Assembly: GCF_024521635.1 (NCBI RefSeq)
Contig: NW_026250403.1
Location: 372,001 to 436,000, forward strand
DNA length: 64,000 nt
Direction: 5' to 3'
Source: Tricharina praecox
Lineage: Eukaryota
Positions 23,749 through 35,130 of this stretch are shown one piece after another. The translations under genes and the position numbers were made by a program. The notes beneath the pieces were generated by a model, which made no database searches, had not been told where the DNA came from, and worked only from the letters and a program-made list of their open reading frames with translations. Each line of letters opens with the position of its first letter. Position 1 is the first letter of the stretch.

Positions 23749-25819
23749 ATGAAGCTAATATCCGCGTTTGAATCTGCCCTTGCAGCGGCAACACTATTAA
23801 ACGGTAACCAGAACCTTATTTCTTCTGTCTCTGTCCGTTGGGCCTCCCAGACGGAAAATCACAAGCGCTGATCAGCCAATCGGAAAAACCGTTCAGCCGT
23901 AGCACACGCAACCGCTGTTCCAGCTCGGGCCGAGTCTGTATCTCGCCGGGCGATATCGAATTCTCCGTCCGGCGGCTACGCTCCGAAAGAAGGATCGTGT
24001 CCGGACCAACCGCTGATCCGGACCGCGCGGAACATCTCGGACGGCGAAGCCGACTTCCTCGAGAAGCGCCATGTGGTCACCGACGCTGCTCTCCGGGACT
24101 TCCTGGGCCGTGCGGGCATGACCGACTTCGACTACGATGCGTTCATCGACTCGTACTCGCCCACGGTTGCGCTGGCGTTCTCCGGCGGCGGGTATAGGGC
24201 CATGTTGAGCGGTGGAGGAGTGATCAAGGCTATGGACTCCAGGACCCCCGGCACGACCGGTACCGGCCAGGTCGGTGGACTATTGCAGAGCGCAACGTAC
24301 TTTGCCGGCCTTTCTGGTGGTTCGTGGCTTCTGGGCTCGGTCATCCTGAACAACTTCACCACCATCGGCGGCCTGCAGAGCAGCGATGACTTGTGGGATT
24401 TGGAGAGCAGTATTTTGGCCCCGGATTCGCTCTCGTACTACAGCGATCTCCGGAGCGAAGTCAACTCGAAGGCGGATGCTGGGTTTGAAACAACGTTGAC
24501 GGACTACTGGGGTAGAGCTCTGTCGCGACAGTTTCTGAACTGGACGGATGGCGGACCAGGAGTTACGTTCTCATCCATAGCCTTGACCGATGGTTACAAG
24601 AACGCGGATCATCCGTTCCCCATCGTTGTGGCCGAAGAACGGCATCCTGGGGAGTTGATCGTTTCACGGAACGCTACGGTCTTTGAGTTCAATCCTCTGG
24701 AGATGGGATCGTGGGATCCAACGCTGTACTCATTCACCCCGTTGGAGACCCTGGGTACGAATATGACCAACGGCCAGCCGGAGGAGGATAATGTTTGCGT
24801 TCGCGGGTTTGATAATGCTGGGTGAGTCTCAAACCCCCACACTCACAGGACAAGAAGTACATACCCAATGTGCATCACATTTCTAACCCATCAACAGATA
24901 TATTCTGGGCACCTCATCCAGTCTCTTCAACCAATTCCTCCTCAACCTCAACTCTTCCGGTATCAGCGGGATCTTCCTGGAAGCGGCCCAGCGCGTCCTC
25001 TCCGACTTCTCCGAGTCCGAAACCGACATCGCCGCCTACACACCGAACCCCTTCTACGGTGTCAACACCGACACCAACCCATCCGGAGCGATCCGCAACC
25101 TCACCCTCGTCGACGGTGGCTCTGATCTCCAGAACCTCCCGTTGGTCCCGCTGGTGCAGCCATTCCGCAACGTGGACGTAATCTTCGCCTTCGACAATTC
25201 CGCCGACACGCTCAACGACGACGCCACGACGTCGAACTGGCCCAACGGCACGGCGATGGTCGCAACATACGAGCGGGCCATGCACGGCGACATCTCGAAC
25301 GGCACGCTGTTCCCGTACATTCCGGACACCAACACGTTCGTGAACCTCGGGCTCAACCGGCGGCCCACCTTCTTCGGCTGCAGCGCCCAGAACATCACCG
25401 CCGGCCGCGCCAATGCCACCGCTCCGCCGCTCGTCGTGTACATGCCCAACACCCCGTACACCTACAAGAGCAACGTCAGCACCTTCACCATGTCGTACAA
25501 GAACGAGGAGCGCGACGGGATCATCGCCAATGGCTGGAACGTCGCCACGCAGGGAAACTCTACCGTGACGGACGCGAACGGCTGGCCCGCGTGCATCGGC
25601 TGCGCCATCATTCACCGCCAGCTCGAACGGACGGGCGTGGAGCAGTCGGAACAGTGTAAACAGTGCTTCACGGACTACTGCTGGAACGGGACCCTGGCAA
25701 CCGAGGACCCGCCGCAGTACGAGCCGGCAATGTTTATCAAGACCAGCGCTGGCATGCGGGTTACGAGTGGGGGAATGGCGCTTCTGGTTGCGGTCGTTGC
25801 TGGGCTGGTTGTAATGTAA
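23749..25819 (+). CDS. PLB1: Lysophospholipase / phospholipase B, secreted and probably GPI-anchored; 2 introns
   Basis: Signal peptide MKLISAFESALAAATLL; SGGGYRAM (Arg), GLSGGSW (Ser), VDGG (Asp); C..CF..YCWNG; hydrophobic C-terminal tail; introns about 23804-23896 and 24822-24897. Confidence 0.93.
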
Positions 25820-27447
25820 TATAGGAGACGAATTTTAGGGCTTTTTTGGACTAGATGGTATGCTCCGACCTGGTTATGTTTCCTGCGGGAGGAAGAGGCT
25901 GATTAACTTGCAAAGCCGGTAAACTCTCGATTGAGAGTCAGTGAGCTTTCTCACCGGATGAAACTATTATATAAACGAAGAGAGGGGTTTAGTATTGAAG
26001 CCAGCATTGCTGGCATAGTTAATTATTTGCTATTAAGAGCCAATCGATATCGCACGGAAGTGCAGCACGCAATTCGTTTGTTAGTGAATGGCGAAACATC
26101 GCTCGCTCATTTAAGCGGCGAGTCCCTGGCAAGCGACGAGTGAGAGCACCTGCGTGCCTTAACCATGTCTCAGCGCACAATCACGTATGACTGTAGGACC
26201 GACCAAACTCCACCTCATCCACCTCCCATACCGCGGACTGAACGCCATGGAATACCTACCGTAGGACTGCGTAGACTGGCCAAGCGGCCGTAAAACAGAC
26301 CTCGATGGGCACTGGCTGATACCTACGTTCTCTCCCCGTCGATATGTAGGACCCTCTCAGTTGGTCCGGCGCATCGCTTGCCGCGGCCGAGACAATAGGT
26401 AGTGCTTCTAGCATCGCCGTTGCACCGCCCATCTTCTGCACGCGGTGTGATCTAGACTGGGGGAACGCATGGATCGCTCACTCGAACCTTCCAAGTAGCG
26501 TTTGCAGGACAGGTAGTTCCAGTGGCAATCGAATACCTAGGCAGATAAGCGAAACCTGTGGTCTTTCGGAGGGTTGTCGCTATCTGTATTTATGTCCCTT
26601 ATTTCGGTGGTGGTCTGTAATCTAGTCTGGAATTTGCCCCGTGTGACCAGAAATTCTGGGTATCAATACCCAAGTCAGCAGAGGTTGGGCTGAACAGACA
26701 AACTGGGCTGTGGTATTCAAATTGCAATGTAGATAGTGATTGCCTATGCACAGCTCGTGAGACCCGAAGAAAAGACCAAAGTGCAGTTCAAAAACCGCAC
26801 GGCTTCCTATGTATCAGTGGAATGTGTCGGCCCGCATATCAGAGCAGACTAGAGCAGCAGATGTGCAAATCATCCATGCAAACTTCCCACCAACCCATGG
26901 CCATGTTTGAGCCCTACATGAGTGTGTTCCTTGGTCGTTTCGACCGGCGAGTCGGATTCGGAAGGTTAGTTCGGGCTGGCTCGAAGATCTGTCTGCCGAT
27001 GCGCTTGCAGTGCGCCTGGGCCAGCGGGGTTCAATGCTGGACTCTATGTAGAGGTCTCAATATACGGCCATCAAACATCGACATGCTTCTTCCCGGGCCA
27101 ATCCCTTCGCTTGGTTGAGCCGGTGGTTGATGGTATCCGGGAATGTAAAACATCCCCTCGGAATGGTCCAGTCCAATCGTCCAGTAGTTTGACTGAATGG
27201 TGGGGGAGAGCTGTGGGGGCAACATTGCACCTTCGGCTGACGAGCTGGCTGGATGACTGGCCAGTTGGTTGAGAGGAAGGTCAAGTCAAGAGCCTGCTGC
27301 CTTCGGGGCTGGCGGGTATATATCACCAACCCCACTCAGCGTGATTGCTTGTGATTGTCCGAAGTCCTCGAAAGTTCTGCGTCCTTCCCTCTGGATTTCC
27401 TCCATCATCAGTTGCTTCAACCCTTGTGGTTAGCAGTAGCCACCGCC

Positions 27448-28569
27448 ATGCATCCACTCGTCGTTCTCGCTGTACTGATCCTAACGCTTCTCTACCTCCA
27501 CCGTCGCCACCGCAAGCCCACGACAACTCTGATCTGCACCCTCGACGAGGCCCGCAGTCTTCTCGCCAACCCTTCCACAGCATTCACCCCCCTCCAGTCC
27601 CGCGCGCTCCCCAACCAGCGCCTCGTCACCGCCTTCGGCATAAACAACAGTTTCACCACCACTTCCCTCCAGCACCACAAATCCTTCCTCCACACCGCAT
27701 CCCACCTCCTAAAGCTTTCCCCATCCCAATGGGCCTCGATGGCGCAGCTTGCACAGTCGCTCCTCCCGTCCAAACACACACGCACGCTCCATCTCATCCC
27801 CTTCCTCCGCACCTACGTCCTGACGATCATCCTGCACCTATTCTTCCCCGCGTACATGCCAGCGGACGAAGCGGTAGTAGGCCGGCTAGCGCAGCTGATC
27901 CACGCGCTGTGGGTGCAAAGCAAGACCGGTGCACCATCATTGGCCTCCAGGCAAGAGCTCTCCGAGGTGATGCGGACACTGTTCCCAGACGTAGCCGAGA
28001 ACCCGCTGAACCTCCTGCTGCCGGCCTACGAGACGCTGTGGCGCGTCGTCCTCCGCCTGTTCATCGAGGTGCACCGCGGCCCCGCAGAGTGGCGCGAGGT
28101 GCTGAATCTCTACCTGCAGCGGCCGAGCACTGAGCGGTTCCGTAGTTCAAGAGACGGCGTGTCCCCCATGTTCCTGGTGCGCGAGGCGCTAAGGCTGTAT
28201 CCGCCTACCAAGCGGGTCTACCGTGCGGTTGGGGAGAAGGCGTGGGTGGCTATTGATTTGGAGGCGCTGCAGATGGACAGCAAGGTGTGGGGGGAGGATG
28301 TCGCGATATTCAGGCCCGAGAGGTGGAGGTTTGTTGCTAGTGAGCGGCAGGCGGGGGAGATGGGCTGGATGCCGTTCGGTGAGGGGTGCTTTGTGTGCCC
28401 GGCGAAGGGGATGTTTGCACCGCGATTGATTGCACTCCTTGTGGCAGCGGTTGGCAGAGTGGTGCCTGCTGAGGCGATGCCGACGGCGGAAAGGAAGGAG
28501 GATCTGCCCGAGAAGGGGAGGCTTGATAATGAACGGGATGGGTATGTGACGCTGAAGTATTGTTGGTAA
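27448..28569 (+). CDS. Short atypical cytochrome P450 (373 aa, intronless)
   Basis: N-terminal membrane anchor; EALRLYPP (ExxR); FRPERW; PFGEGCFVCPA heme-thiolate-like motif; I-helix-like LLPAYETL. Confidence 0.8.
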   Translation: MHPLVVLAVLILTLLYLHRRHRKPTTTLICTLDEARSLLANPSTAFTPLQSRALPNQRLVTAFGINNSFTTTSLQHHKSFLHTASHLLKLSPSQWASMAQLAQSLLPSKHTRTLHLIPFLRTYVLTIILHLFFPAYMPADEAVVGRLAQLIHALWVQSKTGAPSLASRQELSEVMRTLFPDVAENPLNLLLPAYETLWRVVLRLFIEVHRGPAEWREVLNLYLQRPSTERFRSSRDGVSPMFLVREALRLYPPTKRVYRAVGEKAWVAIDLEALQMDSKVWGEDVAIFRPERWRFVASERQAGEMGWMPFGEGCFVCPAKGMFAPRLIALLVAAVGRVVPAEAMPTAERKEDLPEKGRLDNERDGYVTLKYCW

Positions 28570-29044
28570 GGATTTGGGCGTTTATGCAGGCGTTATGGCT
28601 ATCGGTGGCTGGAGCTGTGGGCACTTTGATTTGTTTGGTTATGGACTTTGGTGGTATATATTATTTATCGACTGTGGGCCTGGTGCTCGTGGGACAATGG
28701 AGTTTATCTGAGTCTGCGAATGGACGTTAGTTGGTATGTACGTCTATGGCGCTTCAGCGGTTGCACTGAAGTTCAATACACGCCACTCCGCTAGTCATTC
28801 GTAATACTCACAACACATCCTGTATTGGTACCGTCGGGGCCATTATCTGACCCTCAATCCCAATCTCGCAGTCTATCAAAGGTGATAATAATATCAAAAG
28901 AATTAACAATCCAGCCCAAGGTATAATGTTTCCCAGTGACCACCGTAACGTAGCCATAACCAAAACTCCAAAACACCAAGACGCAATGCAAACCAAAAGG
29001 TAAGGAAACACTCCACACTCAAGTCGCCACTAACGGATTGCTCC

Positions 29045-31967
29045 CTATCCGCTACCGGATCCCATAGCCCTTCCAACGCTATCCCTGACACCGGTGCTTT
29101 GGAAGAGCGCCCCCCGCAGCTTCTGATTCTCCTCCCTGACGCGAGCCATCTCGGTTCGTAGCCCTTGGAGCTCGTCGTGCTGTGCACTGAACTGCCGTTG
29201 CATCTCTGCCTGCAATGCGCTGATTTGTTGAGACATTGCAGCTTGCATCTGCTCCACTGCTGCTCTGACTATTCCACCGATGTCACCGCCGTCACTTATT
29301 ATCGGCTTGGAAGCTGTGGCGGTACTATTGGTGACGATTCGAGAATTATCGTTGTGGTGTTCGGAGAGGACCGAAAGAGGCCGAGATCCCAAGTACGAAC
29401 GAGACGAAGATACTCCCTCTCCACCGTACTGCCCCATCACAGAAGAAGAGGCCATCGGAGTTGGGAATAAGTCTGCCTGTGGCTCGGGATCGTCGGACCA
29501 GGATACCGTCTTTCGGCTTTTAGCCGAGCGTATGGTTGAGGAGCGAGATGGGTCAGCACGGGTGTCGGGCAAAGTGTTGGCAATCATGCTCTCCTCCTCT
29601 AAGGGAGCTTTCTTGCGTTTGCGTCCGAGCCTACCGGCGCGTTTGCCGACAGCGAGAGCTGCCCAGATGTCTTCATCTTCTTCGGTTGCCAGTTCTTCCG
29701 GAACCTGTTCCTTCTGATCGGGTTGAACCTGTTCCTCCTGAGTGCTGGTTTTTTCAGGCCCAGCTCCGGTGGCTCCAAAAGCTGATTGATGAGTACCGTC
29801 CTCCCCGTCGGGTACGAAAAGTTCGGATGCATGCATCTTTTTCTCGGGGGCGCTAATACTTCTTTTAATGCTAGAAGCGTCGACAGATTCTCGACCAGCC
29901 CTACTGGCAGGTGTACTTCTAGCCTTAGTAGGGGGAACAAAAGGTTCAGGTAATGCTGGTGGATTTTCAGGTTCCGTGACGCTCTTAGACTTCCCAGAAT
30001 ATAATGCTCGGATACTCCGGATCTCGCTTAGGATCCGCCCATCATCGGTTGCCTCGTCCACCTTGATTCGATCTGTACGCACACTGGAAAGACCCCCGAA
30101 AATAGAAACGTTGTTAGAGCCCGATTCTTCTCCGGTGGTGGTGGTGTCCTTTTGCACGTCCCCTTGAAACGCAGAAAAGGCATCCAGCTCCTCGGGCTCT
30201 ACTTCAGCTTCTTCCTTAGTTTCTCCATTATCAGGCACACCATCATCCCACAGCTGCGGCGCGCTTATCGCACTTCGGTGATCACTACTCTGTGTCGAAG
30301 CACGGGCCCGAGGGTCCGAAGGTCTGTGGATTTTCTCGGTTTTCTTTCCCGGTAATGATGCAGATTTGGACACCCTACTCCGTTTCACCGGGCTGAAGAG
30401 CATCATATACCCCTGATCGGCCGCATCTTCCAGAGAGTCGTAGACTGGCGGCGAGAATGCTCTGTGTCTACGTCTTGCCGAGACCTCCTTGATAAGGGGG
30501 TTGCCATCCTCATCAACCTCCTCTGGAGACACGGGCGAACTGCTCATATTGAGCTTTTGGCTTTGGAGCGCCTTGGTGGATTTCCGCGTGCGGTCGGACT
30601 TTCCAGGCTGTTCTCTCGATGCAGCATTTTCTGGTGAAGGCTGTGTGGGAGCAATATCAACCTCTGGTGCGGACACATCACCGCAAACCTGGAAGTGTTT
30701 AATTAGTGTCAAGTATTTTCTCAGCAGGATCGAAGTAACCCACCCATTCCACATCGAGTATACTCTCCCCCTCAGTGTCAACCACCCGCTCTGCAACCTT
30801 GTTGCCATTCCCGTCATATACCAAACATCTTCCGTGCACAGTACCCACGCCGATGAAGTAACCACCGAGTTCCTCTTTCCTGCTCTTGGCAGCGGCGTCG
30901 ATCTCCCTGATGGTCAACCCTGTGGCGGGAGCACCGATATGCCAGCTTCCTAGAGTATCTCCCTTCTCAAAATCGACCAGAAAACATCTCCCATCTTCGC
31001 CCACAGTAACTGCTCGACTTCGCTGACCGGGAACGAATCCAGCACCGGTGATTCCGGCAGAACCTGCAATGCTGGGATCATGCAGATGCCGGAACGTATG
31101 GATGCCTCGCGCATGACACCTTGTGACTCCAAGTCCTGCGTTCTCCTTGTTTCCGGCTTTAGCGGGAGAGAGTTTCGTGTAATCAAAGGCGGCCAGTACG
31201 CCGTCACCGAAAGCTAACAGGAAGATGTGCTTTCTGCTCGGATGGAATGCACAGGTGACTACGGGTGCCGAAGATGCAGATGGGACGAGCGATATTGTTG
31301 TAGCCATCATTTGGTTGTGGATTTGGACCGTCGGGGGCTTTGAAGACGCTGAGATAATGAGATTGGAATCGCAGGAAACGGCAAAGGCAGTGATTGGGGA
31401 TGGGTGCGATCTTGCGGCATCGGCGACGCGGTTATCCGAGAGCGAGTAGGACTGAACGCTGTTGTGGAGCGAGTCTGTATAAAACAAGTTACGAGAATCA
31501 TGCGAGTATTGAAGAAGTCGGCATCTCTGCAGCACATCAAGAAGTCAGATGCGAATCCATGGCTACACCAGACGAGCAGATCCCTAACCTGCGTTCCCCT
31601 CAACCGGTAAGATTTGTCCTGACCGTCCTCGACCTTGTGAAGCATAACCACTTGAGCATCTGCAATCGCCAGTACCGATCCTACGAACCAATATCAGCGA
31701 AATGACCGGACATCCGAGGTGCCCCGCGGTAGGAGGCGCACCATCTAATGCGCGTTTTGCCGCGACAATGCCACGTGATGACGATGTAAAGATCGGTTCG
31801 CAACCATCGCGGTCCCAAGCACATATCTTGCTACTTGTAGTAATGAAGAGCTTCCATTTTGGGTTGTCATCGAAGGGCGCGGTAGGCGAGAGGTCCGCGT
31901 GTGAGAAACCAATGCGAGTCTGGCGGGTGCTACGGAGAGCTCTATTTGGAGAATTGTATGTTGGCAT
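29045..31967 (-). CDS. WD40 protein with C-terminal coiled coil, probable NEDD1/GCP-WD homologue; 3 introns (alternative start at 31988)
   Basis: N-terminal beta-propeller repeats, a long disordered linker, and the C-terminal ...ISALQAEMQRQFSAQHDEL...VREENQKLR; introns about 31681-31741, 31527-31588 and 30689-30743. Confidence 0.7.
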
Positions 31968-32533
31968 AAGTATAGTGGGCAGCGACATGGCGCGGTGCAA
32001 CGAGCATGGGAGCTGGTGGGATGGTGTGGGCAGAGCGGGCGGGATGGTGCGGGCAGATCGGAAGCGGACGAGGTTGCGGGAGACGCGGTAGAAACACGAC
32101 AGCAATGAACACTGCGCTGGAATCCAGATGAGATGGGATCAATACGATAAGATAAGATAACTCACGTACTGCCGTTTTCAACACTGAGTAGAGTATGCTA
32201 GGTTTCCTGTCCAATGAGGTCGGAAGCGAGTGCCTCCCGCCAACACCAATCATCGCGCCTCAATCCATAGCTTGCTTTCCGCTTGCTTGCACCTGCAGCA
32301 CCTGCATCTGCCAGATTGCGCTTCAACTGCCCGTGACTTGTCCAACTACCCTTAGAATATCCTGTTACAGCCAGTCCTATGCTCTCCGGTGATGACCACC
32401 ACATAAAATTCTCGTTCTCGGAAGGGACTGTTTGCGACTTCCCTTCCTTGACCAAAGAAGAAAGACACATCAGCCGCCCAATCGATTCATCCCCCCGAGC
32501 TCGACACCCACTACCGCCACCACCACCGTCGAC

Positions 32534-35130
32534 ATGTCTTTAATACGCTACAGCTCCGACGATTCACGAAGTGTTGTCCTGTGCGTTGACCGCCCCTCTC
32601 CCAATGCAAAGGCCTCAACAAAGGCCTCGACAAAGACACTCGCCGCTTTGCTTCAGCATGCTGACCCGCGTTCGCGTTCACCTGCAGACGTCACCAGCAA
32701 ACGCTCGTGCTCTACGATCCGCACTCGCGCCAAATAATCCTCCGTGAAGCTTCGCCCGCCACTCCCGTGGATGCCACCAACTCCCAATCGTGCCCGTACT
32801 GCAAGAGACCCATGCATCATGGCGACGAGCCCACCTCCGATCCGCTCAGTCCGGGACTAGGTGGCCACCGAGCGCGAAGCAGCACCCCACTTGCGGATTC
32901 GGGCTTTGTCGACCAACACTACTTCCGGATGCTGGATTCTTCGTAAGTGGTCTGACCGACTGCCGCTGTGATGGGGCTTACACAGTCGCCTACGTAGGAT
33001 CCCGGTGGTGGACTCGACATCACCGGAGACTAGGAGATCGGTGCCGCTCCCGAGGCTGACGCCGGAGACAAACCAGAGCTCGAGTGACGAAGCAGCGAGC
33101 GAAGACGACGCGCCCAATTCGCAACGCGATGGAGGCATCAAAGACAGTTCTTTCAGTCCAGGCTACTTTGAAAGGTACAGCACTCGCCATGCGGTACTCC
33201 ACTCCAATGTTTAACACGAGAAACACAGGTTTTTTGTCACAGAGCGTGAGCTCGGGAGGGGAGGGAAGGGAGTGGTGTTACTCGTACGACATGTTCTGGA
33301 CAGTGTCACACTCGGGAACTTTGCTTGCAAAAGAGTGCCGGTTGGTGAGTAGACATCTTCGGCCTGACTTCGGATGGGGTGATGATGTCATACTCACGCA
33401 GTTCAGGAAACAATCACGGGTGGTTAGAGAAGGTGTTGATGGAAGTTCAATTGCTTCAGCGACTTTCGCATGCCAATCTGGTCTCATATCGACATGTCTG
33501 GCTTGAGAATGCGCAGATTTCTGGTATACTTCCTGTGGCCGGTATCTGTCAGTTAGAATTTGCTAATGAGCTCTGAAGCTTTCGGCCCTAGCGTGCCTTG
33601 TGCCTTCATCCTTCAGCAGGTATAGATATCTTCCTTGGCTCCTTGTGTTGGAAGCTGAATTCGAGCCAACCGTAGTACTGTAATTCCGGCGATCTCCACC
33701 ACTTTATTCTGGGCTCTCCGAAGCCGCCCACCAAAGAGTCGTTGAAGGAACGCTTACGGCGGAAGTCTCGGGGACAGCCAGAACCTCCAGGACAACTCTT
33801 CAACATAAGAAAGATGCCTTTTAAACAGATCATCTCGTTTTTCCGAGACATCGCCCAGGGATTAAATCACTTGCATTCAAACGGCTTCATACACAGAGAT
33901 TTGAAACCTTCAAACTGCTTGTTACATGACACTGGGATTCCCGGCGAAGAACTGAAGGTCTTGGTCAGCGATTTCGGAGAAGTACAGATGGAGAATCAAG
34001 TACGGGAGTCAACAGGCAACACGGGAACGATATCATATTGTGCACCGGAGGTCCTCAAGCGGGTAGCACCTGGCGGGGCATACGAAAACTTCACAACGAA
34101 ATCAGATATCTTCTCTCTAGGGATGATCCTACATTTCATGAGTTTCGGAAAACTCCCCTACATATGTGCTGATCAGATCAACGAAGAAAACGAAGACATG
34201 GAGGCTCTTCGTGCTGAGATATCGGCCTGGAAAGGCTTGGATGAGCACGAAATGATCCGCACAGACCTTCCCGAGCAGTTGTACCATTCTCTGAAAGCTC
34301 TCATCAACCCCGATCCGACAGTACGACCGTCCGCAGAGGAAATCCTCCTTGGAATCGAGTTGGGTGTCAGCGAGGAGGCACCACCGATGGTACATACAAG
34401 TTCTGGTGAAGACGATCACACTGGAACCCAGAAACTAACACGGTCACAGAGACGCGGCTCCGTTGCGCACAACAGTCCCCCAGTAATCGACGAGAGCCAA
34501 ACACTTGGCTTCAAGCGAATTTCGCCTATCGCTGACACTCCGCGATCAATCACTCCCGATCCCCTGGGGCCACGATCGCTCAAGGAACCCCCGTCTTTTA
34601 CCAGCAACGGACATACCCTAGGGGATAAACGTAATGGTTCCTCACGCGGTCCCAGGAATTCAAAACTGAGTTGGAGCGCTACGCCACCCGGTTCCCCGAA
34701 GAGACCCTCTGGGTCGCCGAAACAACCAAAGCTGCAGAAGGAGAATACAATAGCCCCCGAAGACCCGGTGACCGGATCTTCTATGACCGAATCGTCGATG
34801 ATATTGAGGCCCCATCTCGACTCACCCAAGCCGATCGAACCTCTCCTAGATTTCGAAGTCGTCCCACCAACTGGTTCAGGCTGGAGAGGAAAATTGCTCG
34901 CGCCGCAGTCGATTATATTGGTGAAGATTGTTGTCTTTTTCATGAAGATGCTGTCCCTCACGAGACCTTGCATCCCAGCGGCGCCCAACTCTTCTGTTCA
35001 CTACCCCATGATTATGTTTGCGATTCTGGATTTTATCGCGCCGTCGCTGACTTTGACGACGACACTGGGTATTGCGCATATTGGCTTGCTCATGTTGGTC
35101 AACACATTTGGCGAATTGTGTATGTACTGA
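32534..35130 (+). CDS. IKS1: Ser/Thr protein kinase Iks1; about 6 introns; hydrophobic C-terminus
   Basis: CPYC, YFRML, FSPGYFERFF, ELGRGGKGVV, ACKRVPVG, LVSYRHVWLE, HRDLKPSN, SDFGE, TGTISYCAPE. Confidence 0.9.

Follow-up and report, generated by a model that had tools for sequence, protein, structure and literature searches.

A divergent candidate orthologue of NEDD1/GCP-WD in the filamentous ascomycete Tricharina praecox

NEDD1 proteins and the fungal record

NEDD1/GCP-WD serves as an adaptor through which gamma-tubulin ring complexes are attached to microtubule-organising sites. The vertebrate proteins (human, 9qvm and 9qvn; Xenopus, 9i8m and 9i8n) begin with a seven-bladed WD40 propeller, continue with a disordered regulatory linker and end in a C-terminal helix. 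According to a preprint on the NEDD1 complex, F603 and F622 are core residues of the human NEDD1 tetramer, and E598, D602 and E605 provide acidic contacts to the N-terminal domain of GCP3. The mitotic linker site S411 of human NEDD1, needed for augmin-dependent nucleation, is described in PMC9836086 as a Cdk1 site required for branching nucleation. Drosophila Grip71 and Arabidopsis NEDD1, which share a family with the vertebrate protein, were compared here through a review and the names of ESM Atlas clusters.

In fungi, NEDD1 is generally listed as missing. The orthologue table of PMC6281477 gives '-', meaning that an orthologue was sought and not found, for A. nidulans, S. pombe, C. albicans and S. 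cerevisiae, and, according to an augmin structure paper of 2025 (PMC12748588), neither augmin nor NEDD1 is conserved across fungi. Edzuka et al. is cited among papers that take NEDD1 to be missing from the ascomycetes studied, and NEDD1 is not mentioned in the text of PMC2837639. A chytrid NEDD1 is reported in the preprint 10.1101/2025.01.03.631223, the supplement of which enters NEDD1 for chytrid expression data only and not for Dikarya. This fungal protein, which we compared by its description, would be the evolutionary intermediate to expect; chytrids retain centrioles, whereas the protein considered here comes from a Dikarya lineage with spindle pole bodies. As far as we searched the literature, no source names any member of the ascomycete family described below NEDD1, and to that extent the novelty claimed for an ascomycete NEDD1 in a preliminary description of the locus stands.

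Gene structure and domain organization

The locus lies in a window of 64,000 nucleotides of DNA from the cup fungus Tricharina praecox, this being the whole stretch that was analysed (contig NW_026250403.1, positions 372,001 to 436,000); coordinates given below are positions in the window, and all features lie on its minus strand. The ORF map, taken together with the sequence of the minus strand, delineated a gene of four exons and 921 codons at 29045-31988. The coding part of exon 1 (31742..31988) begins at Met1, ends with the first base of codon 83 and encodes an N-terminal tail and the first propeller blade. It is followed by intron 1 (31681..31741, 61 nt, GTGCGC..TAG), exon 2 (31589..31680), intron 2 (31527..31588, 62 nt, GTTAGG..CAG) and exon 3 (30744..31526), whose 261 codons hold the bulk of the WD40 propeller. 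Intron 3 (30689..30743, 55 nt, GTGGGT..CAG), in which a branch-like CTAAT site is present, precedes exon 4 (29045..30688), which contributes 547 codons (30688-29048) and the stop codon (29047-29045) and encodes the disordered linker and the C-terminal helix. All three introns have GT..AG ends, and translation of the joined exons by script yielded 921 residues without an internal stop. Exons 2 and 3 and the three introns are borne out by contigs as well as by this translation, and exon 3 additionally by sub-threshold Pfam matches; exon 4 was placed from sequence, translation and the structural model.

Spliced contigs, one from each of two public runs belonging to two studies (the kind of run is unrecorded and presumed to be RNA), cover 28900..32064. 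They reach 32064 at one end, extend past 28900 at the other, contain 0 differing letters and skip exactly the three introns. No run recorded as RNA was among those listed as containing the gene, and in three metatranscriptome runs, next to none of the words of this gene were present. We conclude that this is an expressed, spliced, real gene. A non-functional locus, that is a chance ORF or a pseudogene, has a negligible probability in view of the spliced contigs in two runs, the open frame of 921 codons and the size of the family, which numbers 706 representatives at E <= 0.001, 283 of them at E <= 1e-30.

Translation start at Met1 (31988) is supported by the orthologues P0004 and P0015 and by the contigs. 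The preliminary description had placed the gene at 29045..31967; the 29045 end was correct, and 31967 corresponds to Met8. The public entry P0001, an 827-aa model labelled 'hypothetical protein', is identical to the C-terminal 827 residues and lacks the first 94. Reading the sequence further upstream, a 21-codon ORF was found at 31942..32007, inside the contig cover, which overlaps the main ATG and is out of frame with it. The gene is flanked by genes for a lysophospholipase and a protein kinase and by an ORF that matched nothing in Pfam; their possible use as a functional clue was considered and dropped.

A WD40 propeller occupies about residues 45-374 of 921 (30744..31856, a span that contains introns 1 and 2), as judged from AlphaFold2, Foldseek and Pfam. 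An AlphaFold2 model of the propeller alone from an orthologue, made with a 74-row alignment, has a pLDDT of 87.2, a pTM of 0.86 and about 29 strands, which we read as seven predicted blades. Foldseek searches of the PDB with this model returned generic seven-bladed WD40 chains (E about 1e-14, query TM 0.56-0.65), and no NEDD1 chain was seen among the 47 rows listed. WDR5/Swd3, mLST8 and G-beta share the seven-bladed fold at an identity of 10-16%; these proteins lack both the long linker and a C-terminal NEDD1-like helix, and the resemblance is one of fold only.

At the sequence level, Pfam matched the exon translations to propeller families that were generic and below threshold. With a 13-sequence full-length profile, the propeller pieces scored -1.9, 0.4 and 4.6 bits against NEDD1. 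When a 69-sequence full-length profile was searched against the PDB, idealised and nucleolar WD40 proteins came out on top and NEDD1 lay outside the best 60 of 271 matches, a ranking that is uninformative for orthology because it is dominated by a single blade repeatedly matching idealised WD40 repeats. Thus, no NEDD1-specific match was shown for the propeller sequence, which has moved beyond HMMER recognition relative to vertebrate NEDD1, and none of the searches supported the two blade pairings with NEDD1 made by eye in the preliminary description. A structure search of the ESM Atlas with the propeller alone placed NEDD1-named clusters in rows 2, 4, 8 and 9 of 10, at TM values (0.73-0.74) that barely exceed those of other WD40 rows (0.68-0.72) and make this a lead only. 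Plant NEDD1-named clusters are among these nearest propeller models (TM 0.74). The corresponding feature search with the propeller alone gave no NEDD1-named cluster among the rows listed.

The linker corresponds to P0001 residues 289-748. These about 460 residues (14.5% Ser, 8.4% Pro) are modelled as disordered, with pLDDT below 50 except for a short predicted helix at residues 496-511 (29996..30043; pLDDT 55-73), which carries a conserved DG+xLSxIRSIRA motif. This agrees with the disordered, S/P-rich linker of roughly 450 residues described previously, and the outline given at that time, a spliced gene encoding a WD40 propeller, such a linker and a terminal helix, was confirmed by contigs, open frame and models. 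The order of the three elements is that of vertebrate NEDD1; the Tricharina protein is, however, longer (921 versus 660 residues), with a linker about twice the length.

Within the linker, the motif best conserved across the family is LFSPVK (30383..30400). Its serine, S473, forms part of a complete CDK consensus, S-P-x-K, and the 921-residue protein has three complete S/T-P-x-K/R sites, this one included. LFSP[VI]K was found in most members of the fungal family, and its serine and proline were unchanged in all 40 family segments compared. The motif resembles the S411 site in the linker of vertebrate NEDD1, the two fitting [LM]FSP[VI][KR], but HMMER aligned LFSPVK with NEDD1 MFSPIR, which contains S411, at 4.6 bits and i-E 87, below significance, and a profile of the motif alone gave no PDB match at E <= 10.

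The C-terminal helix and its relation to NEDD1

The terminal helix comprises P0001 residues 750-812, 63 residues modelled at pLDDT 84-95, or about residues 844-906 of 921 (29093..29281); the helix located previously at about 29114-29269 is contained within it. To compare the tail with known structures, a profile was built from 34 fungal segments picked by a Pezizales-only HMM, with no NEDD1 sequence included. Among 177,635 PDB sequences, the first match of this profile was Xenopus NEDD1 (9i8m_U, E 9.9e-8, 35 bits) and the second was human NEDD1 (9qvm_W, E 1e-7, 35 bits), followed by SNAP-25 (E 0.0044, 20 bits). The alignment covers residues 606-669 of 671 in Xenopus NEDD1 and 594-658 of 660 in the human protein, at the end of which the human letters agree with the animal NEDD1 C-terminus given in the preliminary description. 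Consistent with this match, the sole PDB match of the 13-sequence Pezizomycete-centred full-length profile at E <= 0.01 was NEDD1 (E 0.002).

Less sensitive or differently indexed searches did not retrieve NEDD1. The last 101 residues, searched as a single sequence, gave 16 PDB matches at E <= 10, with designed helical bundles at the top and NEDD1 absent; since this search was too insensitive, profiles were used. Pfam assigned the tail to chance coiled-coil families below the cut-offs only, and a word-indexed search of longer proteins with the C-terminal profile returned 15 matches, all of them fungal-family or unnamed proteins and none a named NEDD1. By the profile searches, the helix is significantly similar to the one through which vertebrate NEDD1 binds the gamma-TuRC. 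A profile match between the two had been named beforehand as a test of the assignment, and it was found in the direction from the fungal profile to NEDD1.

Considering that coiled coils are alike in composition, an unrelated fungal WD40 protein might have come to carry a NEDD1-like coiled coil by convergence or chance. Such an origin would fit a propeller sequence without NEDD1-specific signal and a sole significant link of 58-65 aligned residues. The scores argue against it, with NEDD1 at 35 bits and the best other coiled coil at 20 bits, as does the position of the match, at the extreme C-terminus of two proteins that both have an N-terminal propeller and a disordered linker. Moreover, leads from the Atlas give NEDD1 independently, both with the full-length protein and with the propeller model. 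The family also provides an internal comparison: Dothideomycete-type members have a second type of C-terminal coiled coil, whose profile retrieved GCN4-like zippers from the PDB and left NEDD1 outside the best 60, indicating that the match between helix and NEDD1 is not a generic coiled-coil effect. We consider convergence or chance very unlikely.

Residue-level comparison revealed which parts of the helix are kept. In the column of NEDD1 F622, phenylalanine occurs in 30 of 34 family sequences, including the Tricharina protein, and the Q625 column contains glutamine in 32 of 34. At the F603 column, M (16), L (7), A (6), F (2) or V (1) occurs in 32 of 34 sequences (M in Tricharina). As in vertebrate NEDD1, a downstream EEN..LR block is retained, with N in 34/34, E in 33/34 and L in 33/34 sequences spanning Pezizomycetes, Orbiliomycetes and Lecanoromycetes. 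The stretch that separates the F..Q block from the EEN block is shorter in the fungal helix than in the vertebrate one; here HMMER placed an insert in NEDD1 of 6 residues with the 34-sequence profile and of 10 with the Pezizomycete-centred one. The GCP3-contact acidic residues are also not retained: E598, D602 and E605 align to A, Q and A in the Tricharina protein, this N-terminal part of the helix being where the alignment of the family to NEDD1 is least certain. Across the family, an acidic residue is found at the E598 column in 11 of 34 sequences (E 8, D 3), at the D602 column in 12 of 34 (E 10, D 2) and at the E605 column in 1 of 34, subject to the same uncertainty.

A tetramer of the C-terminal helix was examined by predicting four copies of the 83-residue C-terminus. 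The score was 0.56, compared with 0.13 for the best of three controls, in a prediction that did not use the family alignment and that is read against a score mark calibrated on two copies rather than four. The four-copy runs had a contact agreement of at least 83% and a partner pLDDT of at least 70, and contacts were in register, as expected of a parallel bundle, over residues 6-67 of the segment. In calibration, 21 of 30 proteins with structures solved as one-chain pairs attained the score mark, compared with none of 23 solved single chains. For eukaryotic proteins the figures were 17/29 and 0/30, with only 1/7 reaching the mark among those without an older solved relative, so that the four-copy pass may reflect prior exposure of the predictor to the solved NEDD1 bundle. 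With this reservation, the predicted assembly of the C-terminal helix is a parallel bundle of four helices.

Distribution in Pezizomycotina and proposed role

Members of the family identified by name (30 looked up among 150 listed of the 706 representatives) fall into six Pezizomycotina classes, and none of these named members carries the name NEDD1. A NEDD1-like helix is recognisable in Pezizomycetes, Orbiliomycetes and Lecanoromycetes. Dothideomycetes, Xylonomycetes and Candelariomycetes also have the remainder of the protein. In Dothideomycete-type members, a CxxC element and a GCN4-like zipper occupy the place of the helix. The two kinds of tail, Dothideomycete-type and Pezizomycete-type, have no detectable relation (hhalign probability 1.8%), suggesting that the tail is evolutionarily free to change.

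This exchange of the helix raises the possibility that the protein descends from NEDD1 and has lost the adaptor role, the propeller and a self-associating tail having been kept as a scaffold for another partner. The lack of conservation of the acidic residues that contact GCP3 would be compatible with such a history, as would the reported dispensability of GCP4-6 and augmin in A. nidulans. However, conservation across three classes is strong both at the tetramer-core positions and in the EEN..LR block, which points to a conserved partner surface rather than a mere zipper, and the 34-segment profile match extends across 58 positions, beyond the heptad core alone. Loss of the adaptor role is, on balance, unlikely.

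We favour the reading of the gene as a divergent orthologue of NEDD1/GCP-WD, an adaptor attaching gamma-tubulin ring complexes to microtubule-organising sites, with a probability of about 0.72. Support for it comes mainly from the C-terminal helix match, together with the shared architecture and the predicted four-helix bundle, and lends weight to the original suggestion that the locus encodes an overlooked, divergent NEDD1.

Taking the human and Xenopus complexes, whose structures are solved, as a guide, we infer that the Tricharina protein binds gamma-tubulin complexes. If the NEDD1 orthologue works as its vertebrate counterparts do, its C-terminal helix would assemble into a parallel tetramer, which would be gripped by MZT1:GCP3 N-terminal modules and so docked on the gamma-tubulin complex. 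The outward-facing propeller would then bind the attachment site, which could be the microtubule lattice, augmin or a receptor at the spindle pole body or septum. Phosphorylation of the LFSPVK serine S473 by a cyclin-dependent kinase may switch attachment on in mitosis, in the way that S411 acts in NEDD1.

A broader scenario can be offered tentatively, at odds that we place below even. NEDD1 may never have been lost in filamentous ascomycetes: a fast-evolving orthologue in at least six Pezizomycotina classes would link augmin, or receptors at spindle pole bodies or septa, to the GCP4-6-containing gamma-tubulin ring complex, with a CDK switch at the LFSPVK serine as the counterpart of S411, and the Dothideomycete-type lineage would have exchanged the helix for a cysteine-flanked GCN4-like zipper.

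If Pezizomycetes, Orbiliomycetes and Lecanoromycetes have a recognisable NEDD1 helix, the view that NEDD1 is absent from the ascomycetes studied so far would need revision. Such a protein would also give fungal cell biology a concrete gene with which to ask how GCP4-6-containing complexes and augmin serve spindle pole bodies, spindles and septa. The protein would be a case of adaptor drift in which the architecture is kept while the propeller has become unrecognisable by sequence and the linker has doubled in length. If the exchange of helix for zipper in the Dothideomycete-type lineage is true, it would amount to a natural experiment in adaptor re-wiring.

Structure and surroundings of the spliced gene

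The gene in focus occupies positions 29045-31988 of the minus strand and, as read from an ORF map and the minus-strand sequence, consists of four exons (31988-31742, 31680-31589, 31526-30744 and 30688-29048) followed by a stop codon at 29047-29045. Its three introns of 61, 62 and 55 nt all run from GT to AG, and the spliced translation gives 921 residues with no internal stops. In each of two public runs, which come from separate studies, a single contig lies over this stretch, with no differing letters; either contig omits exactly the three introns and extends to 32064, past the start codon. The kind of both runs is unrecorded, and the contigs are uninformative on RNA ends or level, but since they lack all three GT..AG introns, they are most simply read as transcript. 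The gene is real and spliced. A preliminary description had placed it at 29045..31967; the lower end stands, while the upper end falls at the eighth codon, likewise a Met, and the start codon begins at 31988.

The public protein for the locus, P0001, is named 'hypothetical protein BZA05DRAFT_3132 [Tricharina praecox]' and comprises 827 aa, which are exactly the C-terminal 827 residues of the 921-residue model starting from an internal Met. The 94 N-terminal residues missing from P0001, including the first propeller blade, are present in the orthologues P0004 and P0015. Orthologues and spliced contigs alike favour the longer form over P0001. An upstream ORF of 21 codons (31942-32007, minus strand), itself within the contig cover, begins 19 nt ahead of the main ATG and overlaps the main ORF in another frame; it could damp main-ORF translation.

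On the plus strand, two adjacent ORFs at 23875-25816 each correspond to one half of the lysophospholipase catalytic domain PF01735 (first half E 4e-87, second half E 6e-94) and together make up a single phospholipase B gene whose halves are separated by an intron or frame change. A 403-aa ORF at 27358-28566 (plus strand) has no Pfam match at E <= 0.001; its C-terminus carries F-G-x-G-x-x-x-C-P-A-K-G, by eye reminiscent of a P450 haem-ligand loop. A protein kinase domain (PF00069, E 1.2e-29) lies at 33679-35127, also on the plus strand. On the evidence of this analysis, these neighbours are unrelated to the gene.

Propeller and linker

The N-terminal WD40 propeller was modelled with AlphaFold2 from a propeller-only orthologue and a 74-row alignment (mean pLDDT 87.2, pTM 0.86), giving about 29 strands that we interpret as seven blades; a 25-row model of P0001 likewise places the propeller at high confidence. 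In the latter model, the linker (P0001 residues 289-748; Ser 14.5%, Pro 8.4%) has pLDDT <50 except for a short helix at 496-511, and is followed by a single long helix at 750-812 (pLDDT 84-95), corresponding to window positions 29093-29281. The results for gene, propeller, linker and helix confirm the preliminary description, which had reported a spliced gene with a WD40 propeller, a disordered S/P-rich linker and a terminal helix, in every sequence-level part. This domain order is that of NEDD1.

At the sequence level, the propeller is without a NEDD1-specific signal. Its three pieces scored -1.9, 0.4 and 4.6 bits against NEDD1 with a 13-sequence profile, and a 69-sequence full-length profile searched against the PDB placed idealised and nucleolar WD40 proteins on top, with NEDD1 absent from the best 60 of 271 matches. 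Pfam returned propeller families only, all sub-threshold, and Foldseek of the propeller model returned generic seven-bladed propellers at 10-16% identity. In the ESM Atlas, whole P0004 retrieved NEDD1-named clusters (arthropods, chordates, plants) at ranks 5, 7, 9, 10 and 11, which at 0.86-0.88 fall under the 0.9 bar and serve as a lead only. A structure search with residues 40-400, equally a lead only, gave NEDD1-named entries at 2, 4, 8 and 9 of 10 (TM 0.73-0.74, against 0.68-0.72 for the other WD40 entries); the feature search with the same residues had no NEDD1-named cluster among the rows listed. Rank 2 for whole P0004 was a Basidiomycota 'WD40 repeat-like' cluster (597 aa, 0.95), the nearest foreign one by language-model features, which may be the counterpart in basidiomycetes and an intermediate on the way to canonical NEDD1.

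Within the linker, conservation peaks at [YF]-[ML]-x-L-F-S-P-[VI]-K, in which S and P are invariant in 40/40 aligned segments; the T. praecox copy holds S473, and the protein has three full S/T-P-x-K/R sites, of which this is one. HMMER placed this element on ...MFSPIRD of human NEDD1 (ending at 415, serine at 411) with 4.6 bits and an i-E of 87, and a motif-only profile had no PDB match at E <= 10. According to passages of PMC9836086, NEDD1 S411 is a Cdk1 site needed for branching nucleation; the likeness of the two sites is a suggestive resemblance, not a result. Further linker motifs conserved in Pezizomycetes (window about 29500-30330, minus strand) are D-x-R-S-x-I-S-A-P-x-L-W, D-I-W-L, K-S-R-K-T-V-S-W and, in a predicted linker helix, D-G-+-x-L-S-x-I-R-S-I-R-A. 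These further motifs are probably docking or phosphorylation sites.

The C-terminal helix and NEDD1

When the 13-sequence profile was searched against 177,635 distinct PDB sequences, the sole match at E <= 0.01 was human NEDD1 (9qvm_W, E 0.002), running through its last ~60 residues. An HMM from a Pezizomycete-centred alignment selected 76 of 176 proteins as carrying this type of tail (iE < 1e-4), and 34 segments from these were aligned into a C-terminal profile of 78 positions, without the use of any NEDD1 sequence. The likeness to NEDD1 proposed for the helix held up: against the same PDB set, this profile ranked Xenopus NEDD1 first (9i8m_U, E 9.9e-8, 35 bits; residues 606-669 of 671) and human NEDD1 second (9qvm_W, E 1e-7, 35 bits; residues 594-658 of 660). 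SNAP-25 came third (E 0.0044, 20 bits), and the window's tail as a single-sequence query did not find NEDD1 in the PDB. Preprint 10.1101/2024.11.05.622067 names F622 and F603 as tetramer core, and also Q625; the F622 column is F in 30/34 segments, the F603 column hydrophobic (M, L, A, F or V) in 32/34 and the Q625 column Q in 32/34, and within the EEN..LR block N is conserved in 34/34, E in 33/34 and L in 33/34.

A match of this kind might also arise by convergence with NEDD1, and a second tail type within the family serves as control. Many members (C-termini of P0070-P0151, aligned as A6) replace the NEDD1-like helix with CxxC followed by an LExEVARLKGEVLALKAxLRRxG zipper; they retain the propeller, most retain the LFSPVK motif, and Bogoriella and Neohortaea, the two named ones looked up, belong to the Dothideomycetes. 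A profile built from 19 of these tails retrieved GCN4-type zippers (best E 2.9e-4), with NEDD1 absent from the best 60 PDB matches, so that a coiled coil of this family does not match NEDD1 by default; hhalign found no relation between the two tail types (probability 1.8%). We consider convergence improbable, and the Pezizomycete-type tail is, judging from these profiles, very probably homologous to the gamma-TuRC-binding helix of NEDD1.

Co-folding four copies of the last 83 residues gave a score of 0.56, the best of three controls reaching 0.13; the runs shared at least 83% of their contacts, with partner pLDDT of at least 70. As the nearest contacts join like-numbered residues, the predicted bundle reads as parallel, spanning residues 6-67. 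In calibration, 21 of 30 solved one-chain pairs and 0 of 23 solved single chains passed the tool's mark (on eukaryotes, 17/29 and 0/30, with only 1/7 among those without an older solved relative); this calibration used two copies, the prediction four, and our own alignment was not fed in. Because the NEDD1 bundle is already solved, the pass may reflect likeness to it rather than independent evidence of binding.

Family distribution and proposed role

Orthologues in Pezizomycetes and in one lichen fungus came up in word-indexed searches, which yielded 19 and 24 proteins. A further search of this kind with the C-terminal profile gave 15 matches, each either from this fungal family or unnamed, and none carrying the name NEDD1. 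Against 1.84 billion representatives, the 13-sequence full-length profile retrieved 706 proteins at E <= 0.001, of which 482 pass E <= 1e-10 and 283 pass E <= 1e-30, the best 150 all having E <= 1.3e-60. Names were sought for 30 of these 150 clusters and an organism was given for 18, with more from the word-indexed searches; after a taxonomy check, the named members fall into Pezizomycetes, Orbiliomycetes, Lecanoromycetes, Dothideomycetes, Xylonomycetes and Candelariomycetes. The named organisms are not known to include any Eurotiomycete, Sordariomycete, Leotiomycete or yeast but, with 556 of the 706 matches lying beyond the best 150, no absence is implied. None of the named members looked up is labelled NEDD1; the source labels are 'hypothetical protein', 'WD40 repeat-like protein' and 'quinon protein alcohol dehydrogenase-like superfamily'. 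One member, P0065 (945 aa), is labelled Quercus suber; since it has an LFSPIK motif and the fungal-type CxxC-zipper tail, it is probably fungal DNA within an oak assembly.

NEDD1/GCP-WD is the closest known family and has the same domain order. In the cryo-EM structures described in PMC12932783 and 10.1101/2024.11.05.622067, the matched NEDD1 region assembles into a tetrameric bundle that MZT1:GCP3 N-terminal modules grip. Whereas human NEDD1 contacts GCP3 through E598, D602 and E605 (an excerpt of 10.1101/2024.11.05.622067), the T. praecox protein has A, Q and A instead. These substitutions count in favour of a NEDD1 orthologue with a changed partner, a reading we consider unlikely; the conserved core columns and EEN..LR block of the helix speak against it. 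We favour, at a probability of roughly 0.7, a NEDD1 orthologue that has kept the tethering of gamma-tubulin complexes as its role. If the solved complexes are a guide, its C-terminal helix would tetramerise in parallel and be bound by MZT1:GCP3 N-terminal modules belonging to the gamma-tubulin complex, and four propellers would point outward to bind the site of attachment, which could be augmin, the microtubule lattice, or a receptor at the spindle pole body or septum; CDK phosphorylation of S473 may regulate the tethering.

A table in PMC6281477 gives '-' for NEDD1 in A. nidulans, S. pombe, C. albicans and S. cerevisiae, where attempts to find an orthologue failed, and a passage of Edzuka et al. 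suggests that augmin in fungi might lack a connection to gamma-TuRC. PMC12748588, a 2025 paper on augmin structure, describes both augmin and NEDD1 as not conserved across fungi. NEDD1 is present in chytrids according to part of a chytrid study (10.1101/2025.01.03.631223). A full-text literature search (Aspergillus, Neurospora, Ascomycota, Dikarya, fungi; subscription-only papers outside its scope) found no description of a Dikarya NEDD1. We rate the protein not as a new type of system but as a divergent NEDD1 orthologue in a lineage from which NEDD1 is regarded as missing.
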